A DNA stretch of 52,934 nucleotides, from the IMG/VR virus record IMGVR_UViG_3300011126_000153, positions 1 through 52,934 of that record; one strand, written 5' to 3'. The DNA is from a virus. Lineage: Duplodnaviria; Caudoviricetes. Within the stretch, counting starts at the first letter, position 1, and the number at the start of each line of letters is the position of its first letter. A model generated the notes under the pieces. It saw only the letters and a program-made list of their open reading frames with translations. It did no database searches and was not told the origin of the DNA. This document shows positions 1-45,015 of the stretch, piece by piece. A program made the position numbers and the translations under genes.

Positions 1-21
1 GACGACAACCAATATCAGAGA
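1..21. repeat. Terminal overlap copy 1 (circular assembly)
   Basis: GACGACAACCAATATCAGAGA is identical to 52914-52934; the capsid ORF is continuous across the join. Confidence 0.97.
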
Positions 22-630
22 CAATTCCCTGAAAATACTAGGTCACTTAAGTGTTCATTAGCTACTACTAAAAATACTTTTGGTGCTAATATTTTGAACA
101 ATGCTTTTAATCCAGCTCACTCTATCGGAGATGGTCAACCTGTATGTTCAAGGAATCATCCAATTGATGGCGGAGTATACTCTAATTCATTAGAAGGACA
201 GGCTACGGTTGACTTTAGTGAAGCAGGTGTAGAACAAGCTATCATTGAGATACAAAAATTCCCTATGCAAAGTGGTATTTTATCTCAAACTATGCCTAAA
301 AAGCTAATACTACCACGTGAGCTGCAATTTGCAGCATCAAGACTCTTAGATTCTAAGTTTCGTGTGGATGTAGCCAACAATGATATAAACGCTTTATATC
401 ATAATGATTACATTCCCGGTGGCTACAAAATCAACCAATATCTTACTTCACCCTCTGCTTGGTTCTTACTTACTGATGCAGAAGATGGGCTAAAGCATTT
501 TCAAAGATCTGCTGTTGAAACTGATACATATGTTGATTTCGCAACAGATAACATCATGGTTAAGGCGACTGAAAGATATTCTTTCGGTGTGTCTAATCCT
601 CGTGGAATCTTTGGTTCACCTGGAGTTTAA
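1..630 (+). CDS. Major capsid protein, 3' part (gene starts at 52638 and wraps; about 301 aa in total)
   Basis: Frame open from base 1 (DDNQYQRQFPEN...); motifs GDGQPVCSRNHP, PKKLILPREL, YLTSPSAWFL and ERYSFGVSNPRGIFGSPG are typical of HK97-fold capsids of the Mu gpT-like family. Confidence 0.9.
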   Translation, partial: DDNQYQRQFPENTRSLKCSLATTKNTFGANILNNAFNPAHSIGDGQPVCSRNHPIDGGVYSNSLEGQATVDFSEAGVEQAIIEIQKFPMQSGILSQTMPKKLILPRELQFAASRLLDSKFRVDVANNDINALYHNDYIPGGYKINQYLTSPSAWFLLTDAEDGLKHFQRSAVETDTYVDFATDNIMVKATERYSFGVSNPRGIFGSPGV

Positions 631-641
631 TAATTAAGCTT

Positions 642-676
642 AAGCAGCCTCGGACTCATTCCCTCCGAGGTTGTTT
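642..676 (+). terminator. Intrinsic terminator-like hairpin after the capsid gene
   Basis: AAGCAGCCTCGGA-9nt-TCCGAGGTTGTTT. Confidence 0.7.
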
Positions 677-699
677 ATATCGTTGAATAAGGTGTATTA

Positions 700-1359
700 A
701 TGACAGTATTTACAAAATTAAAATGGCCAGTACAGGATCTATCGGCTGTGTCTGCTTTGCAGGATGTGCTTATACCTGGTGATTTGCTATTAAATGGTAC
801 TTTGCTTAATCCCGATATTCCCGATCAAATCTCTTTTATTAGAGCAAGAATGATAAGATCTGTATCGCTTACTTCTATTAATGATTTAAGCCTTACGAAT
901 TTTATTATTACTGGGCTACAAAATGGTGGGTATGTATCAGAGACCATTAGTGGCCCTAACAATAATACAGTATATGGCACGAAATATTATGACACTATAA
1001 CGTCAGTAGTAGCTAGTACAGCAGTCTCAGGTATTCAAGCTGGCACTGGTGATGCTGGATTTTTACCATTATTGGAAATTAACACTATAGCAAATACTAT
1101 TAATTATTCTGCTCAAGTGTTATTGCCAGTAGGTTCTACTATTAATTATTCGTTATTTCAAACGCTAGATCAGATTAATAATAACTTTATTCCTTTTTTG
1201 AATCAGACGGCGCAATTATTCCCGGCTTTTGGACTTGCGAATGAAACGACCTCACAACTAGCTAATTCATTATTAATCACTAATTTTGTTCTATTAAAAG
1301 TGAATAGTTCTCTATTGCCTATTACAGATACTTTCGAATTTATATTATTACAGGAGTAA
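700..1359 (+). CDS. Virion structural protein, paralogue of 1362..2033
   Basis: Follows the capsid gene; shares LxLNG, RSxSLTSxN, GxQNG and ISGPNNNTV with the next ORF. Confidence 0.7.
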   Translation: MTVFTKLKWPVQDLSAVSALQDVLIPGDLLLNGTLLNPDIPDQISFIRARMIRSVSLTSINDLSLTNFIITGLQNGGYVSETISGPNNNTVYGTKYYDTITSVVASTAVSGIQAGTGDAGFLPLLEINTIANTINYSAQVLLPVGSTINYSLFQTLDQINNNFIPFLNQTAQLFPAFGLANETTSQLANSLLITNFVLLKVNSSLLPITDTFEFILLQE

Positions 1360-1361
1360 AC

Positions 1362-2033
1362 ATGTCAAGAAATTTAGAATACACATTTCCAGCAGCTAAT
1401 GAAGAAGATGTTTGCTTATTACAGGATACAGACGGCGGAGGTGATCCGCTTAAATTAAATGGTTTTCTAGTAAACTCTACTGGGGCAAAAGTATCGTTCC
1501 TAGAACGAGGTTATAGCCGTTCTCTTTCATTGACATCGGTTAATAATCTAGCCGCGGCACAATTCTTTGTGAATGGTATTCAGAACGGGGTGGAAATTCA
1601 AGAAATTATATCGGGGCCTAATAACAACACTGTTTTTACCACCGAAGTTTTTGATGAAATTACACGTGTTTTTGTTGGCCCAGCAGTTCAAGATATTAGC
1701 ATAGGTACAGGTGTAGATGGGTATTTTCCATTAATTGGAATAAATCTAGAAAGACCAGTGATAGATTATGCATTAAGTCTTGCTACATTTAATCGAACCG
1801 GAATTGTAACTATTATTTACGCTACGTTAGATGATATTCAGGAAAATGGCGAATCATATAACGATAATATAATAAATAACAAAAATTTAATTATATTAAA
1901 GCCAGCTAGTACTGAGAATAATTATATATTACCTCCTGAGGATGTAAGGATATATAAATCCTTATTAATAGAAATAATAGGTACTATATTAGATATAGAT
2001 GATGAAATTCAAATGAAATTTATACAAAGTTAA
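1362..2033 (+). CDS. Virion structural protein, paralogue of 700..1359
   Basis: Same shared motifs; RBS AGGAG upstream. Confidence 0.7.
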   Translation: MSRNLEYTFPAANEEDVCLLQDTDGGGDPLKLNGFLVNSTGAKVSFLERGYSRSLSLTSVNNLAAAQFFVNGIQNGVEIQEIISGPNNNTVFTTEVFDEITRVFVGPAVQDISIGTGVDGYFPLIGINLERPVIDYALSLATFNRTGIVTIIYATLDDIQENGESYNDNIINNKNLIILKPASTENNYILPPEDVRIYKSLLIEIIGTILDIDDEIQMKFIQS

Positions 2034-2042
2034 GGAGGAATT

Positions 2043-2222
2043 ATGTCGCAGAGTAGAGCAAAAAGAGAAGTCATGATTACAATGACTAAAGTAAAACCTG
2101 GTAGTTGCTCTAAAAAAGCCAGACATCATGGTGAAAAACAACAAGCAAAAGCCGATGATTCTAAAAATTCATCGACTGGAAACAAGGTTAATCTAGCAGA
2201 GATGTTAAAGGGTTTTATTTAA
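2043..2222 (+). CDS. Small basic protein, 59 aa (below the ORF-track cutoff)
   Basis: AGGAGG RBS; MSQSRAKREVMITMTKVKPG...NLAEMLKGFI fills the intergenic gap. Confidence 0.7.
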   Translation: MSQSRAKREVMITMTKVKPGSCSKKARHHGEKQQAKADDSKNSSTGNKVNLAEMLKGFI

Positions 2223-2252
2223 TAACAATATAATTTAAAAAGAGATGTTTCT

Positions 2253-3308
2253 ATGCATAATACCTCTGGTACTTATGATTTTCAATCTATCGAAGTTGAA
2301 CTTATTATAAGGGAAGCTTTTGAAAGAATTGGTATCTCTGGGGAATTTGTAGAACCTATAAAATTAGATTCAGCTAAAAGAAGTATCAATTTCTTGCTTC
2401 TTGATTGGATGAGTAAAAGTATTAATTTATGGACTTTAAAAAGCTTTTATATGACGCTAATAGAAGGGCAAAGAGAATATAAGTTAGCAACTGAAGTAAG
2501 TGATATTATTCAAGCTAATCTTAGAACATCAACGCGCCAGTTAAACGGCACTGCATCTTCTAGTGAGGGTAATGCTGCAAATGCATTTGATGGCGATTCT
2601 AGCACTGCGTGTACTCAAGTTACACCAGGGGGTGATATAACATATGATTATGGGGAGGGGGTAACTCAACAAATTACTTTTTTTGGTATTCAATCTAATG
2701 TGGAAACTAACCCTAACCTATTAGTAGAGATTTCTTTAGATAATATTAATTGGGTAACTATATTGTCAATTTTACCTAATGAGCACACCCTTGTTGTGGG
2801 AGTTATTGAATGGTTTGATATTCCAACTCCGTATGATGCAAGGTACTTTAGAGTTAGTAGTTTTTCAGATGAACCTCTTGATATTCAAGAGATATATTTT
2901 AATAACAACACTTTAGATTTTGCCATTACCAATGTAAGTAAGTACGAATACAATAATTACCCAAATAAATATCTGCAAGGTCGGCCTTCTGTTTATTATC
3001 TTGATCGTCAATCTGATCCTATTGTAAATATATGGCCTACTGCCTCAGAGCAATATAATTGCCTATTTATTTCGTATAAAGAAATGATGCAAGATGCAGG
3101 ATCTTATACCAACTCTCTTGATATTCCCTCAGGATTCTATCCTGCTTTAGTTTGGGGCTTAAGTTGGCACTTAGCTTTAAAATACAATCCTTCATTAGCC
3201 GAGATGCTAAAGAATGAATACGAGCAATCTTTTACTATTGCTACAAATGAAGATACAGAAAGCGTCCCTATACACCTTGGAATTGATGACAGTAGTTATA
3301 GAGAATAG
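2253..3308 (+). CDS. Head-tail adaptor-like virion protein with an inserted discoidin/galactose-binding-like domain
   Basis: N-terminal TSGTYDF...IIREAFERIG...AKRSINFLLLDW..NLW; central ANAFDGDSST...ARYFRV; C-terminal GRPSVYY..IWP..ALVWGL. Confidence 0.65.
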   Translation: MHNTSGTYDFQSIEVELIIREAFERIGISGEFVEPIKLDSAKRSINFLLLDWMSKSINLWTLKSFYMTLIEGQREYKLATEVSDIIQANLRTSTRQLNGTASSSEGNAANAFDGDSSTACTQVTPGGDITYDYGEGVTQQITFFGIQSNVETNPNLLVEISLDNINWVTILSILPNEHTLVVGVIEWFDIPTPYDARYFRVSSFSDEPLDIQEIYFNNNTLDFAITNVSKYEYNNYPNKYLQGRPSVYYLDRQSDPIVNIWPTASEQYNCLFISYKEMMQDAGSYTNSLDIPSGFYPALVWGLSWHLALKYNPSLAEMLKNEYEQSFTIATNEDTESVPIHLGIDDSSYRE

Positions 3309-3316
3309 GGGGATAT

Positions 3317-3658
3317 ATGAGCGGATCGAATAAAAGCCACGGAAAGTATGTAACTATAGACCCTAACAATCCATCCGCGGTTGGTGTTTGCGATCAAAGC
3401 GGATTTGTTTTTAATCATAAAGATTTAGTCAAACAGATGGAATGGAGAGGGGACTCTTTGGTTTGGACTGGGTTTTTAGTTGGAAAACCATTTTTAGATA
3501 TCCCTAATGAGCAAAACAGACCTCCTCTTGTAAAAGATGATCCGAAGGCGATTAAAAACCCCAGAATACCAGAATCTTACACCGATCCTGAATCTAATCC
3601 TGTGTTGCCACATGCGCAGCTTATGAAAAAATTAAATAATATGAATTGGGGTAGTTAA
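3317..3658 (+). CDS. Conserved phage morphogenesis-cluster protein
   Basis: AVGVCDQSGF...LVKQMEW...GFLV motif; operon position. Confidence 0.65.
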   Translation: MSGSNKSHGKYVTIDPNNPSAVGVCDQSGFVFNHKDLVKQMEWRGDSLVWTGFLVGKPFLDIPNEQNRPPLVKDDPKAIKNPRIPESYTDPESNPVLPHAQLMKKLNNMNWGS

Positions 3659-3662
3659 TGAC

Positions 3663-4331
3663 ATGAAATTTGATGTTTTACATAATTTTATTTCACCTGT
3701 AACTGGCAGAATATTATGCGATCCGGGTAAGATATTAGTAGGAGATGATGCAGGAATTGCTCAACCATCAACCGTTATTCCAATTGAAAGTTTACCAGAT
3801 CTAACATTCAATAAGATATGGCTGGGAGATCTTTTTAATCGCCCCGTAGAAAGTGGTATTTTAGATGAATTTGTAGCTGGCCCAGTAGAATCAGTCATCC
3901 CTTTGAATCTCACTATATGGGATGATTCATCAGGACGCCATATTAGAGATAGTGGTTATAATGTTGCTGGTTTAGCCGCTATAGCAGCAGCAGCAAATTT
4001 GGCTGCTGCTTCTGCTGCTGACGCGGCATTTGCTGCTGCTGTCGCTTCTGCTGCCGCTGTTGCTGCTGCTTCTGCTGCGTTTGCTTCTGCTGCTTTAGCA
4101 GGGGGTGAAGGAGACACTGGCGCACCTGGTTTTGGTTTTCCTGGCTCACCTGGTTTAGTTGGTGCAGCTGGAGTGTCTGGACAAAGTACGCTTTTTTTAG
4201 ATTCTAACATTAATGTTTCAGGTGGAAGAATCGAGGATATAGCCCCATCACCAGAAGCGGATTATGATGCTGTGAGCGCTAAATGGGTCTGGGATTTACT
4301 TAATGATAACGTTGAAATAAAATGGGAGTAA
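3663..4331 (+). CDS. Fibre-like protein with Ala-rich helix, short collagen-like Gly-X-Y and trimeric stalk/neck motif
   Basis: Poly-Ala stretch, GEGDTGAPGFGFPGSPG, IEDIAPSPEADYDAVS. Confidence 0.6.
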   Translation: MKFDVLHNFISPVTGRILCDPGKILVGDDAGIAQPSTVIPIESLPDLTFNKIWLGDLFNRPVESGILDEFVAGPVESVIPLNLTIWDDSSGRHIRDSGYNVAGLAAIAAAANLAAASAADAAFAAAVASAAAVAAASAAFASAALAGGEGDTGAPGFGFPGSPGLVGAAGVSGQSTLFLDSNINVSGGRIEDIAPSPEADYDAVSAKWVWDLLNDNVEIKWE

Positions 4332-4335
4332 TATT

Positions 4336-5583
4336 ATGCCAATGAGTACTATCACTGTAGCTGGGATTAGCCCGACTCTAAATGTCTTAGGAGCTACGCA
4401 ACAATTTAACTATACGCAGCCACTATCTGCATTACAAATAACAAATAGTTTTATTCCTAGCGTTGGTATTCCATCGCAATTTAATGAGGAATATCGCAAT
4501 AATTTATTATCTGGGTTTAGATGGACGCATACAACGACTGATACGGACACACACGGGTCTTTAACTCTTCAAAGTTTTGTTAATGCCCAGTCTTCAGGCG
4601 TTGATATGTTAAGTTTTACAGAAGATAATAATATAGATTTTATTGTGCCACTAATCATATCGTCTGATCTAGATATGAATAATAATAAAATTACTAATCT
4701 AGCAACTCCTATATTAGGTACAGATGCTGCTACAAAAGATTATGCAGATTTAGCAACGAGCGGACTCGTTACTTTAGTATCAGATGTCACAGGTAGCGGA
4801 AATGTTGGTACGAATATAACAACTACTTTTAAGCCAGATCCTATCTTTTTAGGAACTGGCTCTATAACTATCCCAGTAGGTACAACCGCTGAGCGTCCAG
4901 TTGCCCCAGCTGAAGGGATGAGTAGATATAATTCAACTATTTCTAATCAAGAGATTTACAACGGTTCTATCTGGCGCCCTGTGGGAAGTGGTGACGGAGA
5001 CGGAAGCGTAACAAGCATAACAGCTAGTACGGGTCTTGATGGTGGCGTTATTACTACTATTGGCTCAATAAGTATATCCGATACTGCGGTTACTCCAGCT
5101 AGTTATACCAATGCTAGTTTCACCGTTAATGCGCAGGGTCAACTAACCGCGGCAAATAGCAATCCTACGGGAGTGCAAGCCAGCTTATATATGGTAGGTA
5201 ATGTAGTTACTACTTCTATACTTATAGCAGATGATTTTGTGAAAGCAGAGGGAACAACTGTATCTACTATATTGAATGATTTCACTATGCCTTTAAACAA
5301 CCGTTTTCTTTACACTGGTATAGATAACATCACAACTCTTGTGCATGCTAATATTAGTTTTTCAGGAACTCTCTCTAATCGTGTATTTGGGATGGCTGTA
5401 TATAAAAATGGGGTGCAAGTCTTATCACCTAATTATAATAAGGTGGGTGGTAATACTATAACGAATTTTGTTGTCACAGTTCCAGTGGAGTTTGCTACCA
5501 ATGATTATATAGAGATTTTTGTCACTGCTAATAATACCAGTGTTATAACAGTTCAGAATATAAATTTATCTGTAACATTATAA
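4336..5583 (+). CDS. Tail fibre/spike-like protein
   Basis: KITNLATPILGTDAATKDY, PVGTTAERP..GMSRYNS, TVNAQGQLT motifs; beta-rich C-terminal head (NDYIEIFV). Confidence 0.75.
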   Translation: MPMSTITVAGISPTLNVLGATQQFNYTQPLSALQITNSFIPSVGIPSQFNEEYRNNLLSGFRWTHTTTDTDTHGSLTLQSFVNAQSSGVDMLSFTEDNNIDFIVPLIISSDLDMNNNKITNLATPILGTDAATKDYADLATSGLVTLVSDVTGSGNVGTNITTTFKPDPIFLGTGSITIPVGTTAERPVAPAEGMSRYNSTISNQEIYNGSIWRPVGSGDGDGSVTSITASTGLDGGVITTIGSISISDTAVTPASYTNASFTVNAQGQLTAANSNPTGVQASLYMVGNVVTTSILIADDFVKAEGTTVSTILNDFTMPLNNRFLYTGIDNITTLVHANISFSGTLSNRVFGMAVYKNGVQVLSPNYNKVGGNTITNFVVTVPVEFATNDYIEIFVTANNTSVITVQNINLSVTL

Positions 5584-5601
5584 TCATAAAGTGAAAAAAG
5601 G

Positions 5602-5610
5602 TGATATACT
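5602..5610 (+). promoter_or_regulatory. Extended -10 promoter element TGATATACT
   Basis: TGn-TAnnnT in intergenic DNA; similar TGATA(C/A/T)AAT at 29312, 41519, 42092, 44885 and 51583. Confidence 0.5.
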
Positions 5611-5627
5611 ACAATTATAAATAGTTG

Positions 5628-5675
5628 TACGAAACTTTAAATCGTATATTTGGTTATGTTTCTTCCCATAAAAGA
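5628..5675 (+). promoter_or_regulatory. Leader two-hairpin motif, copy 1
   Basis: TACGA-AACTTTAAA-TCGTA followed by TCTTCCCATAAAAGA. Confidence 0.7.
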
Positions 5676-5705
5676 TTTTTTTGATTAAATTTAAGAGATT
5701 CTTTT

Positions 5706-7064
5706 ATGCCTAAACCAGCTATTACTACCTTCTCTGGCGTTTCCGTGGCTCAAAGCCCTACAAACATAAATAATGGGCTTGGCGCTCCAGAGTTAACGCA
5801 AGCTCAAATAGATGCAATACCAAATGTTAAGAATGGAGTATTTGTATATAATACTGATACTAATAGTCTTGAAGTTAGAATAAATAATGCATGGGCTGAA
5901 TCAGGCACTGGAGGAGATGTTGATGGCCCAGCAGGTGCTACTAATAATAATTTTGCTGCATTTAATGGTGCAACTGGTAAACTAATAAAAGATAGTGGAA
6001 TAAATATTAACGATTTAGTTGATGGCCCAAACGGTGCTGTTGATGATAATATAGTTACATTTGACGGTACAACTGGTCTTTCAATAAAAGATAGCGGGGT
6101 AAGTATTACGGAGGTTCTTACTCCTTCTCCTAGTGAAACTTTCGCTTCAGAGCTTTATTTATCTACAGCTAGTAATTACATTGAGGATGCGGTGATACAA
6201 ACTGGTCACGAATTTGCCTGGTCTTCATCGCTTAAACTTCTTTTAAGGTCTTGTATAACAGGTGGTGGAGTTAGTAGTACTACTGATGGTGTAACTTGGT
6301 CAAATGTAGCGGATATGCCTTTAGGCAACTGGTGTGTCGCTTGGTCAGATGAGGAAGCGGTATTCTCTGCTACAGAATCAGGAGGGTCAGGTTTTTGTAG
6401 AAGCTATGATGGTGTAACTTGGTCTATAATCGCGAATACCACTGGTACGTTTAGTGCCTCTAGTGTTATATACAGCTCTGAGAGTAGTAGATTTTACGCC
6501 GGACACTCGGATGTTAATAATCGTATATATGGCTCAATAGATGGAGTTTCTTATGACCCTGATACAAGTGATAGAGAAGCTAGAGAGTTTGCTTTTGGAA
6601 ATGGTGTAACAGTTGCTGTTGGCAGTAATGGCCCTCAATATATAACCGCAGCTACTGCTGGTACTGGGATTTGGATTAATTCCGCAGCAACTTTTAGTGC
6701 AGAGTCTGTTGCCTTCTCTGAAGAACTTGGGTATTTCGTAGCCGTTCCAAGAGGCGGAGTATTAACAAATGTTTTTACAAGTGCTGATGGTATAAATTGG
6801 ACGACTCATACAAATGCATTTAATACCACAGATGACAAGCGGTTCATTTTATGGATACCTGCTTTATCAATGTTTCTTGCTGGTGGAGATGGTGAATATT
6901 TAGGTATATCTAAAGATGGCCTTACGTTTAAACAAGTAGCGGATTTTACTATTGCTACGGGTACTGATACATATCAAGGAATCTATATTGATGAATGGGG
7001 AGAATTAATAATGGGAAGAAATGCATTAAGTGTAACTAGAACAGCAAAAAGATTTATTTATTAA
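5706..7064 (+). CDS. Tail fibre/receptor-binding protein with Asp-box (SxDGxxW) beta-propeller
   Basis: Two GPxGAxxxN..FxGxTG..IKDSG repeats; TTDGVTW, SYDGVTW, SADGINW, SKDGLTF. Confidence 0.75.
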   Translation: MPKPAITTFSGVSVAQSPTNINNGLGAPELTQAQIDAIPNVKNGVFVYNTDTNSLEVRINNAWAESGTGGDVDGPAGATNNNFAAFNGATGKLIKDSGININDLVDGPNGAVDDNIVTFDGTTGLSIKDSGVSITEVLTPSPSETFASELYLSTASNYIEDAVIQTGHEFAWSSSLKLLLRSCITGGGVSSTTDGVTWSNVADMPLGNWCVAWSDEEAVFSATESGGSGFCRSYDGVTWSIIANTTGTFSASSVIYSSESSRFYAGHSDVNNRIYGSIDGVSYDPDTSDREAREFAFGNGVTVAVGSNGPQYITAATAGTGIWINSAATFSAESVAFSEELGYFVAVPRGGVLTNVFTSADGINWTTHTNAFNTTDDKRFILWIPALSMFLAGGDGEYLGISKDGLTFKQVADFTIATGTDTYQGIYIDEWGELIMGRNALSVTRTAKRFIY

Positions 7065-7083
7065 AAGAAGATAGAGAAAAACT

Positions 7084-7329
7084 ATGTCTAAGCAACAACA
7101 ATTAGATCTTTTAAATGCTGAGGTAGCTTTATGCAACGCATATATTCTGCAGAAAGATCAATATATAGTCGATTTGAATGCTGCTATTACTCAAACTGAA
7201 GCTCAAATTGTAACATTTAATTCTTCGGTAACACAAGCGAACACTGATAAAGCGAGTATTCAGGCTAATATAACTCTTTTTAATGAGATTATTACGATAA
7301 TCGGAGCTACGAGCGGAAATAACAATTAA
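7084..7329 (+). CDS. Small coiled-coil protein
   Basis: Heptad-like pattern; in the structural operon. Confidence 0.6.
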   Translation: MSKQQQLDLLNAEVALCNAYILQKDQYIVDLNAAITQTEAQIVTFNSSVTQANTDKASIQANITLFNEIITIIGATSGNNN

Positions 7330-7349
7330 TTATAAACAAAGGGAATTTT

Positions 7350-7622
7350 ATGAAAAACAATATTGAATTAATGATCGAAGAACAAAAAAATAAAAGCATT
7401 GTAGTCAATAGTTTGATGATTGATTTGCAATATATTCAGACATTAACTTCACAGCTTTTTGCTACAAATGCTAAATCACTACCTGAGTATAAAAACGGAT
7501 GTGTAGCTTTAAGTAATCTTTGCGATAAAACTGAGGTCTCATTGAGAGAATTAAAAGCAATGATTCCTGTTGAGGAAGACGATAAGGCTAAACCTCGTGT
7601 TGTAGAAGGGGTGGTGAAATAA
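7350..7622 (+). CDS. Hypothetical protein
   Basis: ORF in operon. Confidence 0.6.
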   Translation: MKNNIELMIEEQKNKSIVVNSLMIDLQYIQTLTSQLFATNAKSLPEYKNGCVALSNLCDKTEVSLRELKAMIPVEEDDKAKPRVVEGVVK

Positions 7623-7628
7623 AGAATT

Positions 7629-8015
7629 ATGGGAGTTTTTGTTGATTACGATAGTAACCCTTTTGTTGATCTAAGTGAAGTGCCAACTACTATTTTAGTG
7701 ACTGATGCGCATCCTATAGTAGTACTGGGTATTCTTGTTACCAACAGAGGATCTGAGGCTATTAGATTTACTTTAAAACACCTCGAAACAACTATTTCTC
7801 CTATTGAAACAGTTTCTATTCCTGAGTTTGAGATTAAACCTCTCACAGCTGTAGATATTGTAGCTGAATTTGGATTAACTATTATTCTAAAATATAAAGA
7901 AGCTCCAGATCCAAGCTTGGTTAGTAGTTTAATTTGTTTTACTAATGGTTATACACAAAAGTTTGATTGCACAGTCAGTTATCAAGTTCTTAAGGACTTA
8001 CCTTTGCTAGTCTAG
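7629..8015 (+). CDS. Putative virion protein (beta-rich)
   Basis: ORF in structural operon; IVVLGILVTN motif. Confidence 0.6.
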   Translation: MGVFVDYDSNPFVDLSEVPTTILVTDAHPIVVLGILVTNRGSEAIRFTLKHLETTISPIETVSIPEFEIKPLTAVDIVAEFGLTIILKYKEAPDPSLVSSLICFTNGYTQKFDCTVSYQVLKDLPLLV

Positions 8016-8019
8016 TTTC

Positions 8020-8068
8020 TACGAAACTTAAAATCGTATTAGGTTACTTATTCTTCTCCATAAAAGAA
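8020..8068 (+). promoter_or_regulatory. Leader two-hairpin motif, copy 2
   Basis: TACGA-AACTTAAAA-TCGTA followed by TTCTTCTCCATAAAAGAA. Confidence 0.7.
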
Positions 8069-8100
8069 TCTTTATATTTTAAAATTAAAAAGAGGATCTT

Positions 8101-8493
8101 ATGGAAAAGCCAGCAATAACACGTATCAACGGTGGTTTTGAAATCGTTGCAAACCCAAAATCTAATGAAAATAACGGTTTTTATCTACCGCGATTAAGTA
8201 CAGAACAAAGGGATGCACTAGAAAATGTGGGAGGACTTATGATATTTCATAATAACAATAATGCTTATGAAGTCGCTCAAAACGGTAATTGGTATCAGAT
8301 TAATAGAACTTTATCAACTCCTACTATTGGTGCAGGTCTCGCCCCTGGAAGCGCTCCAATCGTTCTGCCAATTGGAGAGGCGATTGATGTTCAAGTAGCA
8401 GCAAATGAAGTCAAAGGATTTATATATTATGACTCAACAAGTGAGACCTATAGAGCGTATCAGCAAAGCGGTTGGGTCGCGGTAACAGTTTAA
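8101..8493 (+). CDS. Short fibre-related protein; paralogous to the N-terminus of 5706..7064
   Basis: MxKPAIT...NNG..PxLxxxQxDA...W shared. Confidence 0.7.
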   Translation: MEKPAITRINGGFEIVANPKSNENNGFYLPRLSTEQRDALENVGGLMIFHNNNNAYEVAQNGNWYQINRTLSTPTIGAGLAPGSAPIVLPIGEAIDVQVAANEVKGFIYYDSTSETYRAYQQSGWVAVTV

Positions 8494-8505
8494 AGAGGTA
8501 TAATC

Positions 8506-9741
8506 ATGGATCCAGCACTTTTAAATTATTTGCAAAGTCAAGCTCAACAAGAGCAAGCTCCCGATATGGGGCAAGAGATGCCAATGCAAGCACCGCCAAT
8601 GCAAGCACCGCAGATGCAAGCACCGCAAGAGCAAGCCCCATACAATCCTTTTGATTCAGGGATTCAGAAAGCTATTTCAAGTGCAAGAGAATCTCTCGGG
8701 ATGACTGAGCAGCAGCAAGATAGAGCCTTAAGAAATTCAATACTTACTTTTGGCGATAATATAGGTCAGCAACCTAGGCAAAAAGGTTTTTGGAATAATT
8801 TCGGGTCAGCTGCTAGAGCTTTATCTCCTGCAATTCGTGATTATGATAATTCAGAGGATGCGGCTCTTACTCAAAATAATGCTCTTGCTAATCAAATACT
8901 AAATCGTCAAGCAGCTGAGCAACAAAGACAGAGTCAGCTTGAAGATACAAATTGGAAAAGAGGTTTTGACGAAGAGCAATTTGCAACTAAAAAGCAACAG
9001 GCAACAGACCAGCTTGCAGAGCAAGCGCGCTATCATGATTTGATGAAACCAAAACCCGCTGGAAACGAAGGGGGTAATGAAGGTACTTATGATAAAAAAA
9101 CTTTAGATCATATACATAAGAAAAACATCGACCACAGTGAAGATATATACAAAAAAAATAAGACTTCCGAAATAACGACCAAGGCATTAACTAGTATCAA
9201 AGACGTCCTTGCTAAGGAAAGAGACGCGGGAAGTTGGCAACAAGGCTCAGGTCTTTCGGCTAAAATATCTAGATATGTAGCTGCCTCTGCTGGCAAAAAC
9301 GATGCTCAAAAAGAAATATTATTAAAACGTATGCCTTTATTTGGTAGTTTAAAAGAAATGTTTGGGGCAAGAATCACTAACCTAGATTTAGAATTATTTA
9401 TAAAATCATTACCAGGATTGGATCAACCACCAGAGGTTGCGATAGCAGAATTAGAACAGCGTATTAATAATGAAAAATTATCTTCAAAGGAGAGGAGCTT
9501 AAGACAAGAGATTGTAGAAGACGAATTTAATAATAAAGTTCCTTTCTATTCTACGCAGGTAAATAAAAGAGTTGAAGAAAGGATGGGTCTTGCGCAAGAG
9601 CCGGATAACTTAGAGAAAAAGGTTGAGCCAAAAACCGGAATTACCTTATACGATCCAGCGATTAACAAAACTTACTATAATGTTACTCCTGAACACGCTC
9701 AGCATTACTTATCTCAGAATCCAAACTTGGTGCAACAATAA
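8506..9741 (+). CDS. Putative internal virion/DNA ejection protein
   Basis: Gln-rich and helical; MQAP repeats near the N-terminus; position in the tail cluster. Confidence 0.55.
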   Translation: MDPALLNYLQSQAQQEQAPDMGQEMPMQAPPMQAPQMQAPQEQAPYNPFDSGIQKAISSARESLGMTEQQQDRALRNSILTFGDNIGQQPRQKGFWNNFGSAARALSPAIRDYDNSEDAALTQNNALANQILNRQAAEQQRQSQLEDTNWKRGFDEEQFATKKQQATDQLAEQARYHDLMKPKPAGNEGGNEGTYDKKTLDHIHKKNIDHSEDIYKKNKTSEITTKALTSIKDVLAKERDAGSWQQGSGLSAKISRYVAASAGKNDAQKEILLKRMPLFGSLKEMFGARITNLDLELFIKSLPGLDQPPEVAIAELEQRINNEKLSSKERSLRQEIVEDEFNNKVPFYSTQVNKRVEERMGLAQEPDNLEKKVEPKTGITLYDPAINKTYYNVTPEHAQHYLSQNPNLVQQ

Positions 9742-11905: not shown

Positions 11906-12547
11906 ATGGATTATAACTCCCTAACTAAGCAAATACAGGATTACTCGAACAGAACAGATGATTTTTTTCTAGACCAAATACCAGATTTTATTAATCAAGG
12001 TATTAGTAGAATTTATAGCGAAGCTCGAAGTATTGGTTTTCAGAAAATTGTAAATGGTAGTACCGCTTCTAATACTCCTATACTTAATAACCCCAATGAT
12101 TGGAAAGAAACAATTAGTTTATCTATTACTGATACAGATACCTCAACTCAAACTTTTTTGTTACCAAGATCTTATGAATTTTGCATAACATATGAACCTG
12201 ATATAAACGCAGCTAATAAACCTATGTTTTATGCAAATTATGAGATGCCAGCAGCTAATGACTCAACTAGTTTTACTTTTCTTTCTCCTAAACCTGATAA
12301 GGATTATAATTATGAGCTAATTTATTTAAGCTTACCATTATTTAATAAACAAAATCCCGAGAATTTTCTTACAGACAGATACCCAAGCTTGCTTTTATAT
12401 GCTTGTTTATTTGAAGCTATACCGTTTTTAAAAGATGACGAACGTATAGCTACGTTTGAGTCTTTATACAATAGAGCATTAAAAGACATCATGGGTGATT
12501 CTAAAGAAAGGCTCACAGATAGATTAAGTACTAGGGAGAAAACTTAA
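11906..12547 (+). CDS. Podoviral adaptor/tail tubular protein A-like
   Basis: YNSLTKQIQDYSNR..IPDFI; PKPDKDY; NFLTDRYPSLLLYACLFEAIPFLKDDERI. Confidence 0.75.
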   Translation: MDYNSLTKQIQDYSNRTDDFFLDQIPDFINQGISRIYSEARSIGFQKIVNGSTASNTPILNNPNDWKETISLSITDTDTSTQTFLLPRSYEFCITYEPDINAANKPMFYANYEMPAANDSTSFTFLSPKPDKDYNYELIYLSLPLFNKQNPENFLTDRYPSLLLYACLFEAIPFLKDDERIATFESLYNRALKDIMGDSKERLTDRLSTREKT

Positions 12548-18977: not shown

Positions 18978-19898
18978 TTATTTCTCTGTTTTTACTAGTT
19001 CAATAAGTTCAAGGCTAGAACTTTTCTTCCAAGCTTCTTTTAAAGAAGCAGATCCTTTATCTGTAATTTTGTTGTGATCTATATATAAGTATTCAAGACT
19101 AGTGTTTATTTTTAAAGCCTCAGCAAAAGCGATAGCTCCTTCGTCTGAAATTTTGGTATAATCTAAATAAAGTGATTTAAGATTAGTGTTTGTTTTTAAA
19201 GCCTCGGCTAATGCAATAGCTCCTTTGTCTGTAATGTGATTCATGCCTAAATCAAGGGAGGTAAGACTAGTATTTGTTTTTAAAGCCTCAGCTAGAGCGA
19301 TCGTTCCTTTGTCTTCAAGGTTGTTAAAACTTAAATCAATAAAATTAAGTGTAGTGTTTGTTTTCAAAGATTCGGCTAATGCAATAACTCCTCTATCTGT
19401 AATTTCATTTTCACCTAAATTAAGAAAGTGAAGTGCAGCGCCTATTTTTAAAACATGCGCCAAAGCAATAGCTCCTTCATCTGCAATCCGGTTCTGAACT
19501 AGTTCAAGCCTATTAAGGGTTAAGTTTTCTTTTACTAAGTCTGGTCTCCAAAACCAATCTTGATCTATAACGTTTCTAGGTACTACAATTCTAGGTAATA
19601 CAACCCAATCTCCTCCTATCAACCAAATCTTAGTTAAAGCAATAACTCCTTCGTCTGAAATTCGGTTGTGACTTAAATCAATACTACGAATAGAAGTATT
19701 TACCTTCAAAGCGTTAGCAAAAGCGATAACTCCTTCGACTGAAATTTGATTATTAGGTAGAAAAAGATGTTTGACCTCTTTATTTGTCATCAATTCGTCG
19801 GCTAATTCTATAGCTCTTTCATCATCTATGCTGCTGTTATATAAACTTAACAGCCCGTCATTTATCCCCCTTATGTATCTTTTAATAGTTGTACTCAT
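18978..19898 (-). CDS. RNI-like (NLRC3-type) leucine-rich repeat protein
   Basis: 28-aa repeats GAIALAEALKTNTxLxxLxLxxNxITDK. Confidence 0.92.
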   Translation of the reverse strand: MSTTIKRYIRGINDGLLSLYNSSIDDERAIELADELMTNKEVKHLFLPNNQISVEGVIAFANALKVNTSIRSIDLSHNRISDEGVIALTKIWLIGGDWVVLPRIVVPRNVIDQDWFWRPDLVKENLTLNRLELVQNRIADEGAIALAHVLKIGAALHFLNLGENEITDRGVIALAESLKTNTTLNFIDLSFNNLEDKGTIALAEALKTNTSLTSLDLGMNHITDKGAIALAEALKTNTNLKSLYLDYTKISDEGAIAFAEALKINTSLEYLYIDHNKITDKGSASLKEAWKKSSSLELIELVKTEK

Positions 19899-24352: not shown

Positions 24353-24427
24353 TGGGATATAGCTCAGCGGTAGAGCGGTAGTCTTTGGTATTGCAGGTCG
24401 GAGGTTCGATCCCTCCTATCCCAGCCA
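24353..24427 (+). tRNA. tRNA-Gln(UUG) with encoded CCA
   Basis: Acceptor TGGGATA/TATCCCA, D arm GCTC/GAGC, anticodon loop CT-TTG-GT, T arm GGAGG-TTCGATC-CCTCC, discriminator G. Confidence 0.93.
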
Positions 24428-28617: not shown

Positions 28618-28874
28618 ATACAATAGATATAAGGCGTGAATATGGCAGTGTTGTGTTTCGTTTAAGAGAGTCCGTTAAGGCTCGCGCGGACTGGTATGTT
28701 GAATATAATGAGCATGTTTATTCAAAAGAAGAAATATTTTACTTCGAGTTTTTAGATAAATGTATAGAGGATGATATTAAACAATTGCAATTAGCGGTAA
28801 AGCAGAATGAAAAAGATAACGATAAAAATATAATAAACTTTAAATCCAAGAATGGAGATAAAAATGAGAAATAG
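28614..28874 (+). CDS. Hypothetical protein (MNTID start)
   Basis: ATGA overlap; GGAGG RBS. Confidence 0.65.
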   Translation: MNTIDIRREYGSVVFRLRESVKARADWYVEYNEHVYSKEEIFYFEFLDKCIEDDIKQLQLAVKQNEKDNDKNIINFKSKNGDKNEK

Positions 28875-29283
28875 CGCAGAAATACAGCTGATAGGATATG
28901 TTTACCAAGATGCAAAATGCCCGAATGAGCAAGCTTATCCTAACTGGGTAACGTTTAAAGTTTGTGTTAATAAAAAATATAAAGATAAAAGCGGACAAGA
29001 ACAACAAGATACTAGCTGGTTCGAATGTAAATCTAATTCTGAAAAACAATCTCAGTTAATTAAATTATACGTTAAAGATAAAAGCGGAATACTCGTAAGA
29101 GGAATACCTAAAGTAAGAGCCTATACCTCGAGCGCAGGTACTGCTGAAGGTAGCATAGAAGTAATGGTTACATCCTTTGATGTTTTAACTAAGCCCAAGG
29201 GTAATAACACGACCTCTGAGAGTAACTATTCAAATAAGAGTGTACCTGTAGAATCGTTTAAAGATGATGATATCCCGTTTTAG
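28864..29283 (+). CDS. ssb: Single-stranded DNA-binding protein
   Basis: N..QLIG, YKDKSGQEQQDTSWF, acidic DDDIPF tail. Confidence 0.93.
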   Translation: MRNSAEIQLIGYVYQDAKCPNEQAYPNWVTFKVCVNKKYKDKSGQEQQDTSWFECKSNSEKQSQLIKLYVKDKSGILVRGIPKVRAYTSSAGTAEGSIEVMVTSFDVLTKPKGNNTTSESNYSNKSVPVESFKDDDIPF

Positions 29284-30847: not shown

Positions 30848-31519
30848 CTATTCGTCAATATAGTTGATTGTTCGTTCACCGCTTTCGCTAATGTGTAATA
30901 CGTCATAATCTTCTACTACAGTCATACTTTTTAGCTCAAGTTTCATAAGTGAATCATTTGTTCCCAGTGCCTCAGCAAATGCAATTGCTCCGTACTCGGA
31001 TATTATATTATGACTTAGATCAAGGTTTTTAAGAGTATGATTGAACTTTAAAGAATGGGCAATTGATGCTGCTCCGCTATAAGTAATCAAACACTGAATT
31101 AGCTCAAGAGTAGTGAGAGTAGTATTAACCTTTAAAGCCTGGGAAAATTCATCTGCCATTACATCCCCCATATAAGCATCTATTATACTAAGAGAAGATA
31201 GTTTTTTATTAAAATGTAAAGCCTCGGCGATAGCAGTAGTATCACACATTTTGGTATGGATTAGCTCTAGGCTCTCGAGAGTATCATTTACTTTTAAAGC
31301 TTCGCCTAATGCAATAGCTCCTTCCTCTTCTATTGATATGTCTCCTATATAAAGCCCGGTAACAGATTTATTTACTTTTAAAGCTTCCGCTAGAGCAATT
31401 ATTTCTTCAGTCGTTAGCTTTACAAATTCTTCACCTGAATTGTCGTAATTAGATAAGAATATCATGTTGTCTTTGTTTTTAGTGGCTAGAAATTCGTGTA
31501 TAATTGATAGGTATTTCAT
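30848..31519 (-). CDS. Second RNI-like (NLRC3-type) LRR protein
   Basis: Repeats such as GAIALGEALKVNDTLESLEL and LKFNHTLKNLDLSHNII; AGGAG RBS. Confidence 0.9.
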   Translation of the reverse strand: MKYLSIIHEFLATKNKDNMIFLSNYDNSGEEFVKLTTEEIIALAEALKVNKSVTGLYIGDISIEEEGAIALGEALKVNDTLESLELIHTKMCDTTAIAEALHFNKKLSSLSIIDAYMGDVMADEFSQALKVNTTLTTLELIQCLITYSGAASIAHSLKFNHTLKNLDLSHNIISEYGAIAFAEALGTNDSLMKLELKSMTVVEDYDVLHISESGERTINYIDE

Positions 31520-42869: not shown

Positions 42870-44492
42870 ATGACTAACAATACCAATAAAAAGTTATCTG
42901 ATCTTGAAGTAGATACATTAGAAAGTCATGCAAATGCATTGATGGCGGAGATATCGTTATATGAGTTCTTAAAGCAGGCATGGCCTAATATAGTAGGTGA
43001 TCAGGAATTTATTGGAGGGAAGCACATAGAGGTGATTTGTGAGCATTTAGAGCTTGTAGCTAGCCGCAAGATAAAAAAATTACTTATTAATCTCCCTCCT
43101 AGATTCTCTAAATCAACATTGATTTCTGTAGCCTTTCCCGCTTGGGTTTGGTTACGTAATCCTTCTGAGAGATTTTTATGCTCTAGTTACGCTTTGCAAT
43201 TAGCTCATCGTGATTCTAGGTTTTGTCGTACTCTTATGCAGTCTCCATGGTATAAGAAACACTGGAAAGCTCGTTTTTCATTATTAAAAGATCAGAATAC
43301 CAAGGGAAGATTTGATAATACACATAGGGGGTCTCGTATAGCTACTTCTTCCAAGAGTGCAGCCACTGGAGAGGGTGGCTCTATTTTGATAAGTGATGAT
43401 GCTAATAATATCAAAGATGGACAATCGAAGGTAGATAGAGAGGGGCGAATAAATTGGTGGTCGCAGGTTTGGTCTACTAGATTAAATAACAAGAAAAATG
43501 ACTGCATGATTGTTGTTCAACAAAGATCACATGAACGAGATATCTCGGGCTATATTATGGATAATGATGTAAGTGATTCTTGGGTTAAATTAATTATGCC
43601 TATGGAGTTTGAGCTAAATAGAAAGGCTAAAACAGTAGTATTGCCATCTACCAACGGTAAAGTATGGGAGGATTGGAGAACAGAAGAAGGAGAACTACTT
43701 TGTCCAGAGCGTTTTGGTGCTAAAGAAGTTGAGCAAACAAAAGAGGATTTAGGCAGTTATGGTTATGCAGGACAATATCAACAACGTCCTTCACCAGCAA
43801 AAGGCTGTATAATTCAGAAGGAATGGTTTAGATGGTGGAAAGATTCAACTCCTCCACAAATTGATTTTGTTGTTCAGAGTTGGGATACAGCTCTTACTAC
43901 AAAGAAAATTACACAGGAAGCTGGGGGTGGAATAACATCTTATTCGGCCTGTACTACATGGGGAGTATTCAATGATGAGAATAATATACCTAACGTTATT
44001 TTATTATCTATGTGGAGAGGAAGGGAGGAATATCCGGAGGTTAGAGAAAGAACTAAACGTTTATACTTTGATTATAGGGATACGGGAAAAGAAAGAGAAC
44101 CTAGATTTAAAGGTAAAAATGTAGATATGTGCCTTATTGAATCTAAGGCCTCAGGATCTCCTTTAATTCAAGATTTAATATTAGCGGGAGTTCAAGCTAT
44201 GCCTTTTGATCCTAAAAAACATGGTGATAAAGAGGGAAGGGTGCGTTTAATTACTCCTTTAATAGAAGGTGGTAGGGTGTGGCTTCCTGCTAGAGCGCCT
44301 AAATTCACTGCTTTATTACCATTTGCAGATGAGTTTTTAGAGGCAGTCTCTGGTTTTCCTAACGCTGAGTCTAAAGATATAGTAGATACTATGTCTCAAG
44401 CTTTCCTGAAATTAAAATACGGTTATTTTATCTCAAGTCCAAAGGACGAAAGGCATTCACAACCTTATGTAAAAGAGGTGAATCTCTACTAA
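42870..44492 (+). CDS. terL: Terminase large subunit
   Basis: LLINLPPRFSKS Walker A, TGEGGSILISDD, GQYQQRP, QSWDTA, IESKASG, FPNAESKDIVD. Confidence 0.95.
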   Translation: MTNNTNKKLSDLEVDTLESHANALMAEISLYEFLKQAWPNIVGDQEFIGGKHIEVICEHLELVASRKIKKLLINLPPRFSKSTLISVAFPAWVWLRNPSERFLCSSYALQLAHRDSRFCRTLMQSPWYKKHWKARFSLLKDQNTKGRFDNTHRGSRIATSSKSAATGEGGSILISDDANNIKDGQSKVDREGRINWWSQVWSTRLNNKKNDCMIVVQQRSHERDISGYIMDNDVSDSWVKLIMPMEFELNRKAKTVVLPSTNGKVWEDWRTEEGELLCPERFGAKEVEQTKEDLGSYGYAGQYQQRPSPAKGCIIQKEWFRWWKDSTPPQIDFVVQSWDTALTTKKITQEAGGGITSYSACTTWGVFNDENNIPNVILLSMWRGREEYPEVRERTKRLYFDYRDTGKEREPRFKGKNVDMCLIESKASGSPLIQDLILAGVQAMPFDPKKHGDKEGRVRLITPLIEGGRVWLPARAPKFTALLPFADEFLEAVSGFPNAESKDIVDTMSQAFLKLKYGYFISSPKDERHSQPYVKEVNLY

Positions 44493-44883: not shown

Positions 44884-44934
44884 ATGATACAATCTTATTA
44901 ATATGAAATATATATACTACAAATAATAGATATC

Positions 44935-44980
44935 TACCAGCTAATATTGAAGTTTTGATACGCATAAATATTAGCTGGTA
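44935..44980. promoter_or_regulatory. 14-bp perfect inverted repeat in the portal leader
   Basis: TACCAGCTAATATT-18nt-AATATTAGCTGGTA downstream of TGATACAAT (44885). Confidence 0.65.
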
Positions 44981-45015
44981 TTCGCTCAATAAAAACATGA
45001 GATGATTCATAATAT

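Follow-up and report, generated by a model that had tools for sequence, protein, structure and literature searches.

The virus record IMGVR_UViG_3300011126_000153 (Duplodnaviria; Caudoviricetes), a complete record with direct terminal repeats that comprises 52,934 bp of 35% G+C, is analysed here at its full length, which is referred to as the window. A repeated leader element precedes three of its genes, those starting at 5706, 8101 and 51840. Three exact copies of the string TACGAAACTTWAAATCGTA are present (5628, 8020 and 51635), each of them on the + strand, where chance would give 0.12; none of 100 shuffled windows held at least three copies. An earlier note made from this sequence alone had described the repeat as two hairpins, A and B; the repeat is real, both by this count and because relatives carry units before the same gene families. 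A fourth, diverged copy of A (AGTT-T-TGCGA-AACT-...-TCGCA) lies at 51742–51770 and a fifth unit, at 51680–51703 on the + strand, is a variant, here called C-type, whose fold is shared with a set of C-type units from relatives. The five A copies counted previously thus stand as five units, of which four are A-type and one is C-type; a covariance model built from relatives returned the four A-type units, all on the + strand, and nothing further at E ≤ 10. From the 3′ end of A to the ATG the distance is 60 nucleotides (nt) at 5706, 63 nt at 8101 and 70 nt at 51840, in agreement with the spacing of about 60–70 nt first reported, and the 51635 copy lies 205 nt upstream of the 51840 ATG. At 8020, TACGA begins 5 nt past the stop codon TAG (8013–8015), as had been noted, and the preceding AGTT arm (8014–8017) overlaps that stop. 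Element B stands behind three A copies (5661–5675, 8050–8069 and 51780–51802), whereas a different hairpin (51660–51679) takes its place downstream of the 51635 copy. The products of genes 5706 and 8101 are 39% identical across their first 67 residues (E 1e-9) and no relationship is seen between the 51840 and 5706 products (best E 0.21), which bears out the paralogy proposed for the first two and the unrelatedness of the third. Whole units measure 58–63 nt, and these covariation-supported pseudoknot–hairpin leader modules, placed before late virion genes, are a new family.

Element A, judged from its sequence, appears better described as a compact H-type pseudoknot of ~25 nt than as a hairpin. 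The predicted strand order is S1a-L1-S2a-S1b-L3-S2b, in which the UACGA/UCGUA helix of the original hairpin is retained as S2 and the upstream AGUU arm becomes part of the fold. S1 pairs AGUU with AACU, S2 pairs UACGN with N′CGUA, L1 is 1–2 nt long, and the A-rich L3 varies from 4 to 11 nt and ends in A's every time. The 5′ flank AGTT is invariant, the next 1–2 nt are variable (TC, C, G, T, CC, AC, TT, CT), and AGTT is complementary to the AACT that stands directly 3′ of the S2 5′ arm. C-type units follow the consensus NGUC-A-NNNN-A-GACN-UUAAAA-NNNN, with the helix order of the A-type and freer covariation.

Support for this fold comes from covariation. Across 85 distinct A-type sequences, in a model-aligned set that the covariance model had fitted to S2, standard pairs filled 95.7% of cells against 88.9% in shuffles, and double-change cells numbered 39 against 8.0; neither value was reached in any of 500 shuffles. 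When the partners were moved by 1–3 columns, pairing fell to only 25–50%. The second S2 pair is A-U in 58 sequences, G·U in 12 and G-C in 10, the fifth is A-U in 68, C-G in six and U-A in one, and S1 exchanges G-C for A-U and U-A for G-C; overall, double changes affect two of the four S1 pairs and four of the five S2 pairs. In the 35 distinct C-type units 94.3% of cells are paired (86.3% in shuffles), with 28 double-change cells against 6.6, again with no shuffle of 500 reaching either figure, and double changes are found in one of four S1 pairs and in all four S2 pairs. Two interleaved helices, the hallmark of the H-type fold, therefore appear to be maintained by compensatory change in both types. 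RNAalifold, applied to an unfitted MAFFT alignment, recovered four S2 pairs unaided. Departures from Watson–Crick pairing, read in the sense orientation, comprise 20 cells of the G·U type and four of the A·C type, an asymmetry which argues that the sense strand is the one that folds. Moreover, differently compensated S2 variants coexist in single genomes (A-U and G-C in the window, U-A and C-G in one relative, L024), so that a co-evolving dimeric DNA-binding protein offers no explanation. Approximately 25 nt of the unit are nearly invariant, unpaired positions included.

Within the window, all units lie on the + strand. The pseudoknot of unit 1 spans 5623–5646 (47.7 bits, E 1.7e-7), with AGTT (5623–5626) opposite AACT (5633–5636) in S1, a single G (5627) as L1, and TACGA (5628–5632) opposite TCGTA (5642–5646) in S2, across an L3 of TTAAA (5637–5641); the second part of the unit (5652–5675) consists of GGTT (5652–5655) and a hairpin B in which TCTT (5661–5664) faces AAGA (5672–5675) around the loop CCCATAA. 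Unit 2 scores highest, its pseudoknot (8014–8038; 64.6 bits, E 8.1e-11) pairing AGTT (8014–8017) with AACT (8025–8028) and TACGA (8020–8024) with TCGTA (8034–8038), with TAAAA (8029–8033) as L3, followed at 8042–8069 by GGTT (8042–8045) and a hairpin B of ATTCTT (8050–8055) and AAGAAT (8064–8069) closing the loop CTCCATAA. The remaining units stand together in the 51840 leader. Unit 3 (51630–51679; 41.8 bits) is composed of pseudoknot A (AGTT 51630–51633, TACGA 51635–51639, AACT 51640–51643, TCGTA 51649–51653) and an 8-base-pair (bp) hairpin, ATCACTTT/AAAGTGAT, at 51660–51679, and has no GGTT. The C-type unit (51680–51737), whose fold covaries across the 35 distinct units, pairs TGTC (51680–51683) with GACA (51690–51693) and GACG (51685–51688) with CGTC (51700–51703), has TTAAAG as L3, and continues with GGTC (51711–51714) and a weak hairpin with a CCC loop (51720–51735). 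Unit 4 (51742–51802; 45.2 bits) carries a pseudoknot A with a compensated G-C pair (AGTT 51742–51745, TGCGA 51747–51751, AACT 51752–51755, TCGCA 51766–51770) and a long, A-rich L3 (51756–51765), then GGTT (51774–51777) and hairpin B (51780–51802) with the loop ATCCTCAAA.

Downstream of A, the order in the family as a whole is GGUY and then hairpin B, a stem of 4–8 bp whose sequence diverges widely (UUCUU/AAGAA, UCUCU/AGAGA, AAUCU/AGAUU, UUCC/GGAA, CCCC/GGGG and GCUUCU/AGAAGC are examples). The stem closes a pyrimidine-rich loop of ~7–10 nt in which an invariant CC is followed by WUAAA, and its 3′ arm is A-rich. An A+U-rich tract with UUAAA-like repeats extends from B to the Shine–Dalgarno sequence, ~30 nt away, and a U-tract follows B in some units only. 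In an arm-swap test on 51 distinct units, the best contiguous stem measured 5.16 bp for cognate arms and 4.34 bp for non-cognate arms, and none of 5000 permutations reached the cognate value. The loops also resemble anti-Shine–Dalgarno sequences (AUCCUC, CUCCU, AUCCUU), and the loop, 3′ arm and tail of B are complementary to the region from the Shine–Dalgarno sequence to the AUG, with z-scores against shuffles below -2.5 in 13 of 36 units. In unit 1, CAUAAAAGA (5667–5675) is complementary to UCUUUUAUG, whose end is the 5706 start codon; in unit 2 the duplex of B with the corresponding region of 8101 reaches -11.5 kcal/mol (z -3.3 against shuffles); in unit 4 the loop CCUC is predicted to pair with GAGG of the 51840 Shine–Dalgarno sequence. 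Among relatives, 12 of 13 positions are complementary to the start-site region in L007, and the duplex in L048 attains -15.9 kcal/mol (z -4.8). Summed over cognate combinations the duplexes give -333.6 against -299.9 ± 10.5 when permuted (p 0.0004). This complementarity is not confined to the gene-proximal B, as internal units, distant from every start codon, and proximal units score alike (-8.6 and -8.6 kcal/mol).

Two further roles were considered for B. The GG of GGUY and the CC of the loop would form a second pseudoknot of only two invariant G-C pairs, with third pairs in a minority of units, and this pairing is no more than an idea. An intrinsic terminator was rejected: the stems of B, of 4–8 bp, are A/U-rich, a U-tract follows some copies only, and no unit appeared in terminator scans. 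In five distant relatives (L088–L092) the leaders lack pseudoknot units and instead bear a B-like hairpin, ATCTA-GCCTTTCAAA-TAGAT, ~45 nt before the start codon; GGGC precedes this hairpin, and its loop GCCUU is complementary to the Shine–Dalgarno sequence AAGGU.

The units recur in related phages with the same placement. The exact 19-mer was found in 18 further IMG/VR contig stretches, and a search with the 51840 protein returned 21 viral, 50 metagenomic and three genome-bin loci. At least one A-type unit is present in 50 of these 74 loci, eight have C-type matches only, by a loose pattern, and 16 have none, five of the latter having less than 80 nt of upstream sequence. The covariance model made 147 matches in 93 sources, each on the strand of the downstream gene. 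Five larger related genomes hold 18 matches, three to four each, on a single strand per genome and in sense with the gene that follows: 10 precede the 51840 homologue (MAYG.NAPFGLRP...), seven precede MP.P.IT... genes like 5706 and 8101, and one precedes a different gene, whose product has 409 amino acids. In the related genomes the end of the last unit lies 28–42 nt from the ATG. The capsid leader contains up to three units in tandem. The unit core is invariant in phages whose proteins share ~50% identity, which suggests a conserved partner, perhaps a host component. A 22-nt core pattern, sought in 185,579 species genomes, matched one stretch, on a phage-like contig of 14 kb that had been placed in the bin of a Bacteroidota genome; this single occurrence on a phage-like contig indicates that the element is not a host repeat. 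The capsid-gene leaders of several relatives (L026, L034, L063–L066; L043, L070) have, in addition, a separate 7–9 bp hairpin between the promoter and the first unit (for example TCCCACAAC...TTGTGGGA), ~60–100 nt before the first unit in L026, L034 and L063–L066; its counterpart in the window, at ~51602–51624, is weak.

Promoters in these leaders were called as consensus matches. TGNTAYAMT matches eight times in the window and four matches are intergenic on the + strand (5602, 29312, 44885 and 51583); these four have the common extended -10 form TGATAYAMT and may represent a set of strong host-type promoters. The promoter-like site TGATATACT (5602–5610, + strand) lies 12 nt before unit 1, and TGATACAAT (51583–51591, + strand) stands at the head of the 51840 leader. 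At 44885, before the portal gene, TGATACAAT introduces a different leader without a pseudoknot unit (44885–45016), which contains a long perfect inverted repeat, ACCAGCTAATATT ... AATATTAGCTGGT. Among relatives, fibre-region leaders have TGnTATAAT or TGnTATACT 11–15 nt before the AGTT of the orthologous unit, and leaders of 51840 homologues have TTGACA/TTGACG-N17-TACAAT or TGnTATAAT upstream of the first unit. A promoter-like site lies ≤60 nt upstream in 39 of 57 first units, a set found by pattern that includes some false matches inside genes, compared with 179 of 1764 background windows. The units are thus probably transcribed from promoter-like sites just upstream. For unit 2 no conserved promoter is present upstream in relatives, and units of this 8020 type, without a promoter-like site, must be read through from upstream. 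That the 8020 copy leaves no room for a promoter had been put forward as an argument for an RNA-level role; the argument is not needed, because the other copies lie downstream of promoters and would be transcribed anyway.

An intrinsic-terminator-like hairpin with a T-rich tail (645–680, + strand; CCTCGGA...TCCGAGG; -14.9 kcal/mol) follows the major capsid gene. It is G+C-rich, the late region has no other strong terminator candidate between genes on the + strand, and its position would make the promoter, the leader and the two capsid genes a closed, high-output transcription unit. Generic promoter and terminator scans gave counts close to the shuffled expectation (57 against 62.7 and 59 against 60.3) and carry no weight as evidence. 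Element A itself was also assessed as a promoter. A sigma-70-type reading was rejected: TAAAAT is present, but there is no conserved -35 or TG, and complete promoter-like sites lie upstream of A. The spacings of A and its flank, inspected by eye, do not fit the sigma-54, extracytoplasmic-function-type or Bacteroidota-type consensus sequences.

A nucleotide search with 7 kb against 50,697 phage records gave zero matches. PHROGs and Pfam place the large terminase gene at 42870–44492 and the portal gene at 45016–47664. The major head protein gene spans the record ends (52638–52934 and 1–630), and the terminal repeat duplicates the residues DDNQYQR, so that the record is a circular permutation cut within this gene. 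The late region starts at ~38 kb, continues past the record end and finishes at 18.4 kb, with every gene on the + strand. Two different proteins (genes 2253–3308 and 11906–12547) have an SU10-adaptor-like domain, the first with an additional weak match to the F5/8 type C (discoidin) domain. Other names assigned by the two libraries include virion structural proteins, a RecT/exonuclease pair, a single-strand-binding protein (SSB) and several helix-turn-helix (HTH) and ribbon-helix-helix (RHH) proteins, beside which a MarR-like protein is encoded. No RNA polymerase or sigma factor family was detected among the genome proteins by Pfam or PHROGs. The SSB gene (28852–29283) encodes the bacterial PF00436 type, and the covariance model finds no leader unit there. 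Against PDB sequences, the 51840 product had no match at E ≤ 1 and the 5706 product had four chance-level matches only (E 0.81–0.93). The closest homologue of the 51840 product in a cultured phage is gp39 of Pelagibacter phage HTVC023P, 28.5% identical, whose gene adjoins the capsid gene with an upstream gap of merely 53 nt. Leucine-rich repeats of the LRR_6 type occur in two early-region proteins, both encoded on the - strand (18978–19898, E 1.3e-45; 30848–31519, E 1.5e-5); they are unusual in phage and may hint at the host type. A tRNA-Gln gene (anticodon TTG; 24353–24427) lies between early- and middle-region genes. As regards the host, Bacteroidota bins contain two relatives and a Saccharibacteria bin contains one. 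A Bacteroidota host would be disfavoured by the sigma-70-type promoters and by the strong Shine–Dalgarno sequences of the AAGAGG type.

Taken together, the unit is probably a cis-acting element that functions as RNA, as the earlier note had proposed: its helices covary, G·U-type departures outnumber A·C-type ones, and all matches are in sense with the downstream gene. What it does is a more tentative matter, and our leading proposal, somewhat short of an even chance, is a leader module that sets the translation or stability of the adjacent mRNA in the manner of the T4 gene 32 leader. According to this proposal, host RNA polymerase would transcribe the units from sigma-70-type promoters, with unit 2 reached by read-through, and each unit would act after transcription has started, on the gene immediately downstream. 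The pseudoknot would be the feature by which a conserved partner recognises the unit; this partner could be a host component, for instance the ribosome or a nuclease, or else a single-strand- or RNA-binding protein of the phage. Acting with hairpin B and the A+U-rich tract, it would determine how translation is initiated and how long the mRNA persists in the case of the capsid-associated, major-capsid and fibre-region genes. Hairpin B, for its part, may alternate between the closed stem and a duplex with the Shine–Dalgarno–AUG region. We infer, then, that the units are transcribed, that they adopt the tertiary fold, that they meet a partner and that they affect translation or stability.

The T4 gene 32 pseudoknot is the textbook example of a phage leader RNA. 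In the gene 32 operator the pseudoknot lies 67 nt ahead of the start; UUAA(A) repeats occur in the A+U-rich tract that continues from there up to the ribosome-binding site, and the mRNA is very stable (PMC3014915). Both leaders accordingly place a small, coaxial pseudoknot ~60–100 nt upstream of the start codon and a UUAAA-like A+U-rich tract between it and the ribosome-binding site, a likeness that is one of architecture only. The sequences are unrelated, and the present units occur at three loci and in tandem, with an additional hairpin B and its GGUY and CC. Nor is the autoregulation of gp32 paralleled, since the genes downstream are capsid-associated and fibre-region genes, not a single-strand-binding protein gene, and the SSB of this phage is of the bacterial type and not gp32.

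Several observations weigh against the proposed leader module. Energetically, the S2 consensus amounts to just -2.1 kcal/mol in RNAalifold, and a 6-bp hairpin (AGUUUC/GAAACU, loop UAC) that competes with S2 is possible in most units; where a nucleotide shared by this hairpin and S2 changes, however, it is S2 and not the hairpin that is compensated. Dinucleotide shuffles of the B regions are as stable as the regions themselves (minimum free energy z -0.24; best stem 6.2 against 5.3), so that the support for B is comparative, from the arm-swap test, and not thermodynamic. For the B/start-site duplexes the mean cognate z is only -0.54, and the signal may largely be A-runs meeting U-runs. The significance of all shuffle-based comparisons is overstated, because the sequences are related. 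Pfam and PHROGs scans of the genome proteins identified no RNA-binding family and no candidate partner protein. Finally, the sequencing runs that matched window positions 1–9000 were four DNA runs, from two studies, and no RNA run.

The alternative that survives best, although unlikely, is that the units are mRNA stabilisers, nuclease barriers or processing signals, the pseudoknots blocking decay from the 5′ end or marking a cleavage site and so yielding stable virion mRNAs. Fibre-region units begin 11–15 nt after a -10 element and so lie few nucleotides from the likely 5′ end, the capsid leader has up to three tandem units, one unit sits within an operon directly before a gene, and the orientation is strict; the invariant core among phages with ~50%-identical proteins would fit a host partner that is itself conserved, or a role that is structural only. 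The predicted helices are, however, short and A/U-rich, and this reading overlaps with the translation or stability module rather than excluding it. A bolder scheme, which we regard as rather unlikely, envisages a new class of device made of RNA only, in which tandem units, each a compact triplex-type pseudoknot with its hairpin, would either halt host exonucleases, as a phage counterpart of exonuclease-resistant RNA (xrRNA), or switch between two folds, the extended hairpin versus the pseudoknot and the B stem versus B paired with the start site, and would thereby gate virion protein translation without a dedicated protein.

Processive antitermination, in which the nascent RNA, by itself or jointly with a phage protein, would bind RNA polymerase and promote read-through of late-region terminators, is a less likely prospect again. 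The HK022 putL and putR elements, as described in PMC9378689, are ~70 nt long and consist of two stem-loops, located just after PL and ~270 nt after PR. The present units resemble them in their size of about 60–70 nt, two modules, several similar copies per genome, place just downstream of host-type promoters or promoter-like sites, probable action in cis and single orientation. A put RNA binds the zinc-binding domain of the RNA polymerase β′ subunit and suppresses pausing and termination. RNA polymerase as the conserved host partner would explain the invariant core, and a terminator-like hairpin does follow the capsid gene. Nevertheless, put consists of two stem-loops and sits in early operons preceded by terminators, whereas the units pair a pseudoknot of two interleaved, covarying helices with a hairpin, and stand in late leaders, in tandem, at a fixed start-codon distance. 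The late region contains a single strong terminator candidate, placed where attenuation after the capsid gene would be expected and not where an override would be called for; the portal-gene leader (44885) has no unit; the narrow 28–42 nt distance to the start codon is not required by antitermination; and up to three tandem units are present where one put suffices. Pfam and PHROGs scans revealed no Arg-rich, N-like protein, and no search for one went beyond these. Lambda nut sites combine a boxA consensus with a boxB hairpin whose 5-nt loop is GNRA-like, and are recognised with an N-type Arg-rich protein. The units share with nut a linear conserved element, a small leader hairpin and one copy after a stop codon, but have no boxA-like string, and their B loop of 7–10 nt is not a GNRA-like pentaloop.

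It is improbable that the units are self-acting RNAs, that is, small self-cleaving ribozymes or riboswitches with the pseudoknot as core and hairpin B as expression platform. Such a role would suit the ~25 near-invariant nucleotides, unpaired ones included, of a pseudoknot with an A-rich loop, the two competing conformations (extended hairpin and S2) and the ability of B to pair with the Shine–Dalgarno–AUG region. The topology is also that of preQ1-I-type aptamers, namely S1 5′ arm, short L1, S2 5′ arm, S1 3′ arm, A-rich L3 and S2 3′ arm, in less than 35 nt in both. A-type units, however, lack the L2 linker between S2 and S1 that would form the pocket, have a shorter S1 and a longer S2, and stand in a gene context unrelated to queuosine. 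Tandem units differ in sequence and the C-type S2 varies freely, which would suit a catalytic core less well than a scaffold; B lies ~30 nt from the Shine–Dalgarno sequence with no consistent U-tract after it, and no unit is matched by Rfam at a threshold as loose as E ≤ 5.

More improbable still is a site acting as DNA, whether a promoter read by a phage-specific sigma factor or polymerase, an operator whose dyad, TACGA-N9-TCGTA, would bind a dimeric regulator, or a repressor site of the stoperator kind. The 19–25 conserved bp have dyad symmetry and a fixed place 60–100 bp before start codons, and HTH, MarR-like and RHH proteins are encoded; TAnnTTTG, the Bacteroidota -7 motif, follows some units, and two relatives lie in Bacteroidota bins. 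Yet the coexistence of compensated variants of one pair in single genomes, the strand-specific G·T-type departures (20 to 4), the covariation of two interleaved helices, a loop length varying from 4 to 11 nt, and the complete sigma-70-type promoters upstream of the units all argue the other way, as do the failure of Pfam and PHROGs to detect a polymerase or sigma family, the restriction of TAnnTTTG to a minority of units and the strong Shine–Dalgarno sequences, which would speak against a Bacteroidota host. Least probable is an element without a function in expression, either a conserved linker that serves homologous recombination and the exchange of modules or a repeat that duplication has spread, since, although the units flank genes whose N-terminal module is conserved and whose remainder varies, and far exceed their flanks in nucleotide identity, compensatory changes in three helices would be unexpected, an unrelated capsid-associated gene is also preceded by units, and the window and five related genomes show no target-site duplications or scattered copies. 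Other candidates were discarded: a frameshift or read-through stimulator at 8020, where the pseudoknot begins in the stop codon with no spacer and other copies lack an upstream frame, and CRISPR-repeat mimics, type III antitoxin repeats and hammerhead and pistol cores, no defining motif of which was recognised in a comparison with their generally known features.

No catalogued RNA family accounts for the unit. Rfam 15, applied to the whole window at the gathering threshold, reported a tRNA only, and on 12 leader-bearing loci at E ≤ 5 gave three chance-level matches, none on a unit. The covariance-model and Rfam search of relatives proposed by the earlier note thus yielded covariation in both helices, no Rfam match and no host element. 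A 2023 survey of structured RNAs in IMG/VR lists candidate cis-regulatory structures, unnamed and numbering thousands, that lie upstream of phage genes, among them five upstream of one major capsid protein family (PMC10690425); unit core strings had no match in six of its supplementary files, three others lying outside the search. The motif may therefore already stand among the anonymous candidates of that survey.

To our knowledge, little is known of the means by which phages that lack an RNA polymerase of their own adjust the quantity of each virion protein, and we know of very few phage leader RNAs that have been characterised. The module described here covaries extensively, precedes the same handful of late genes in dozens of genomes of uncultured phages and has no entry in the RNA family libraries. 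For this phage group it provides a marker at the nucleotide level, and its units are of a size that suits direct probing, reporter assays and nuclease- or ribosome-binding tests. The module could, in turn, yield a new portable element for the control of bacterial gene expression.

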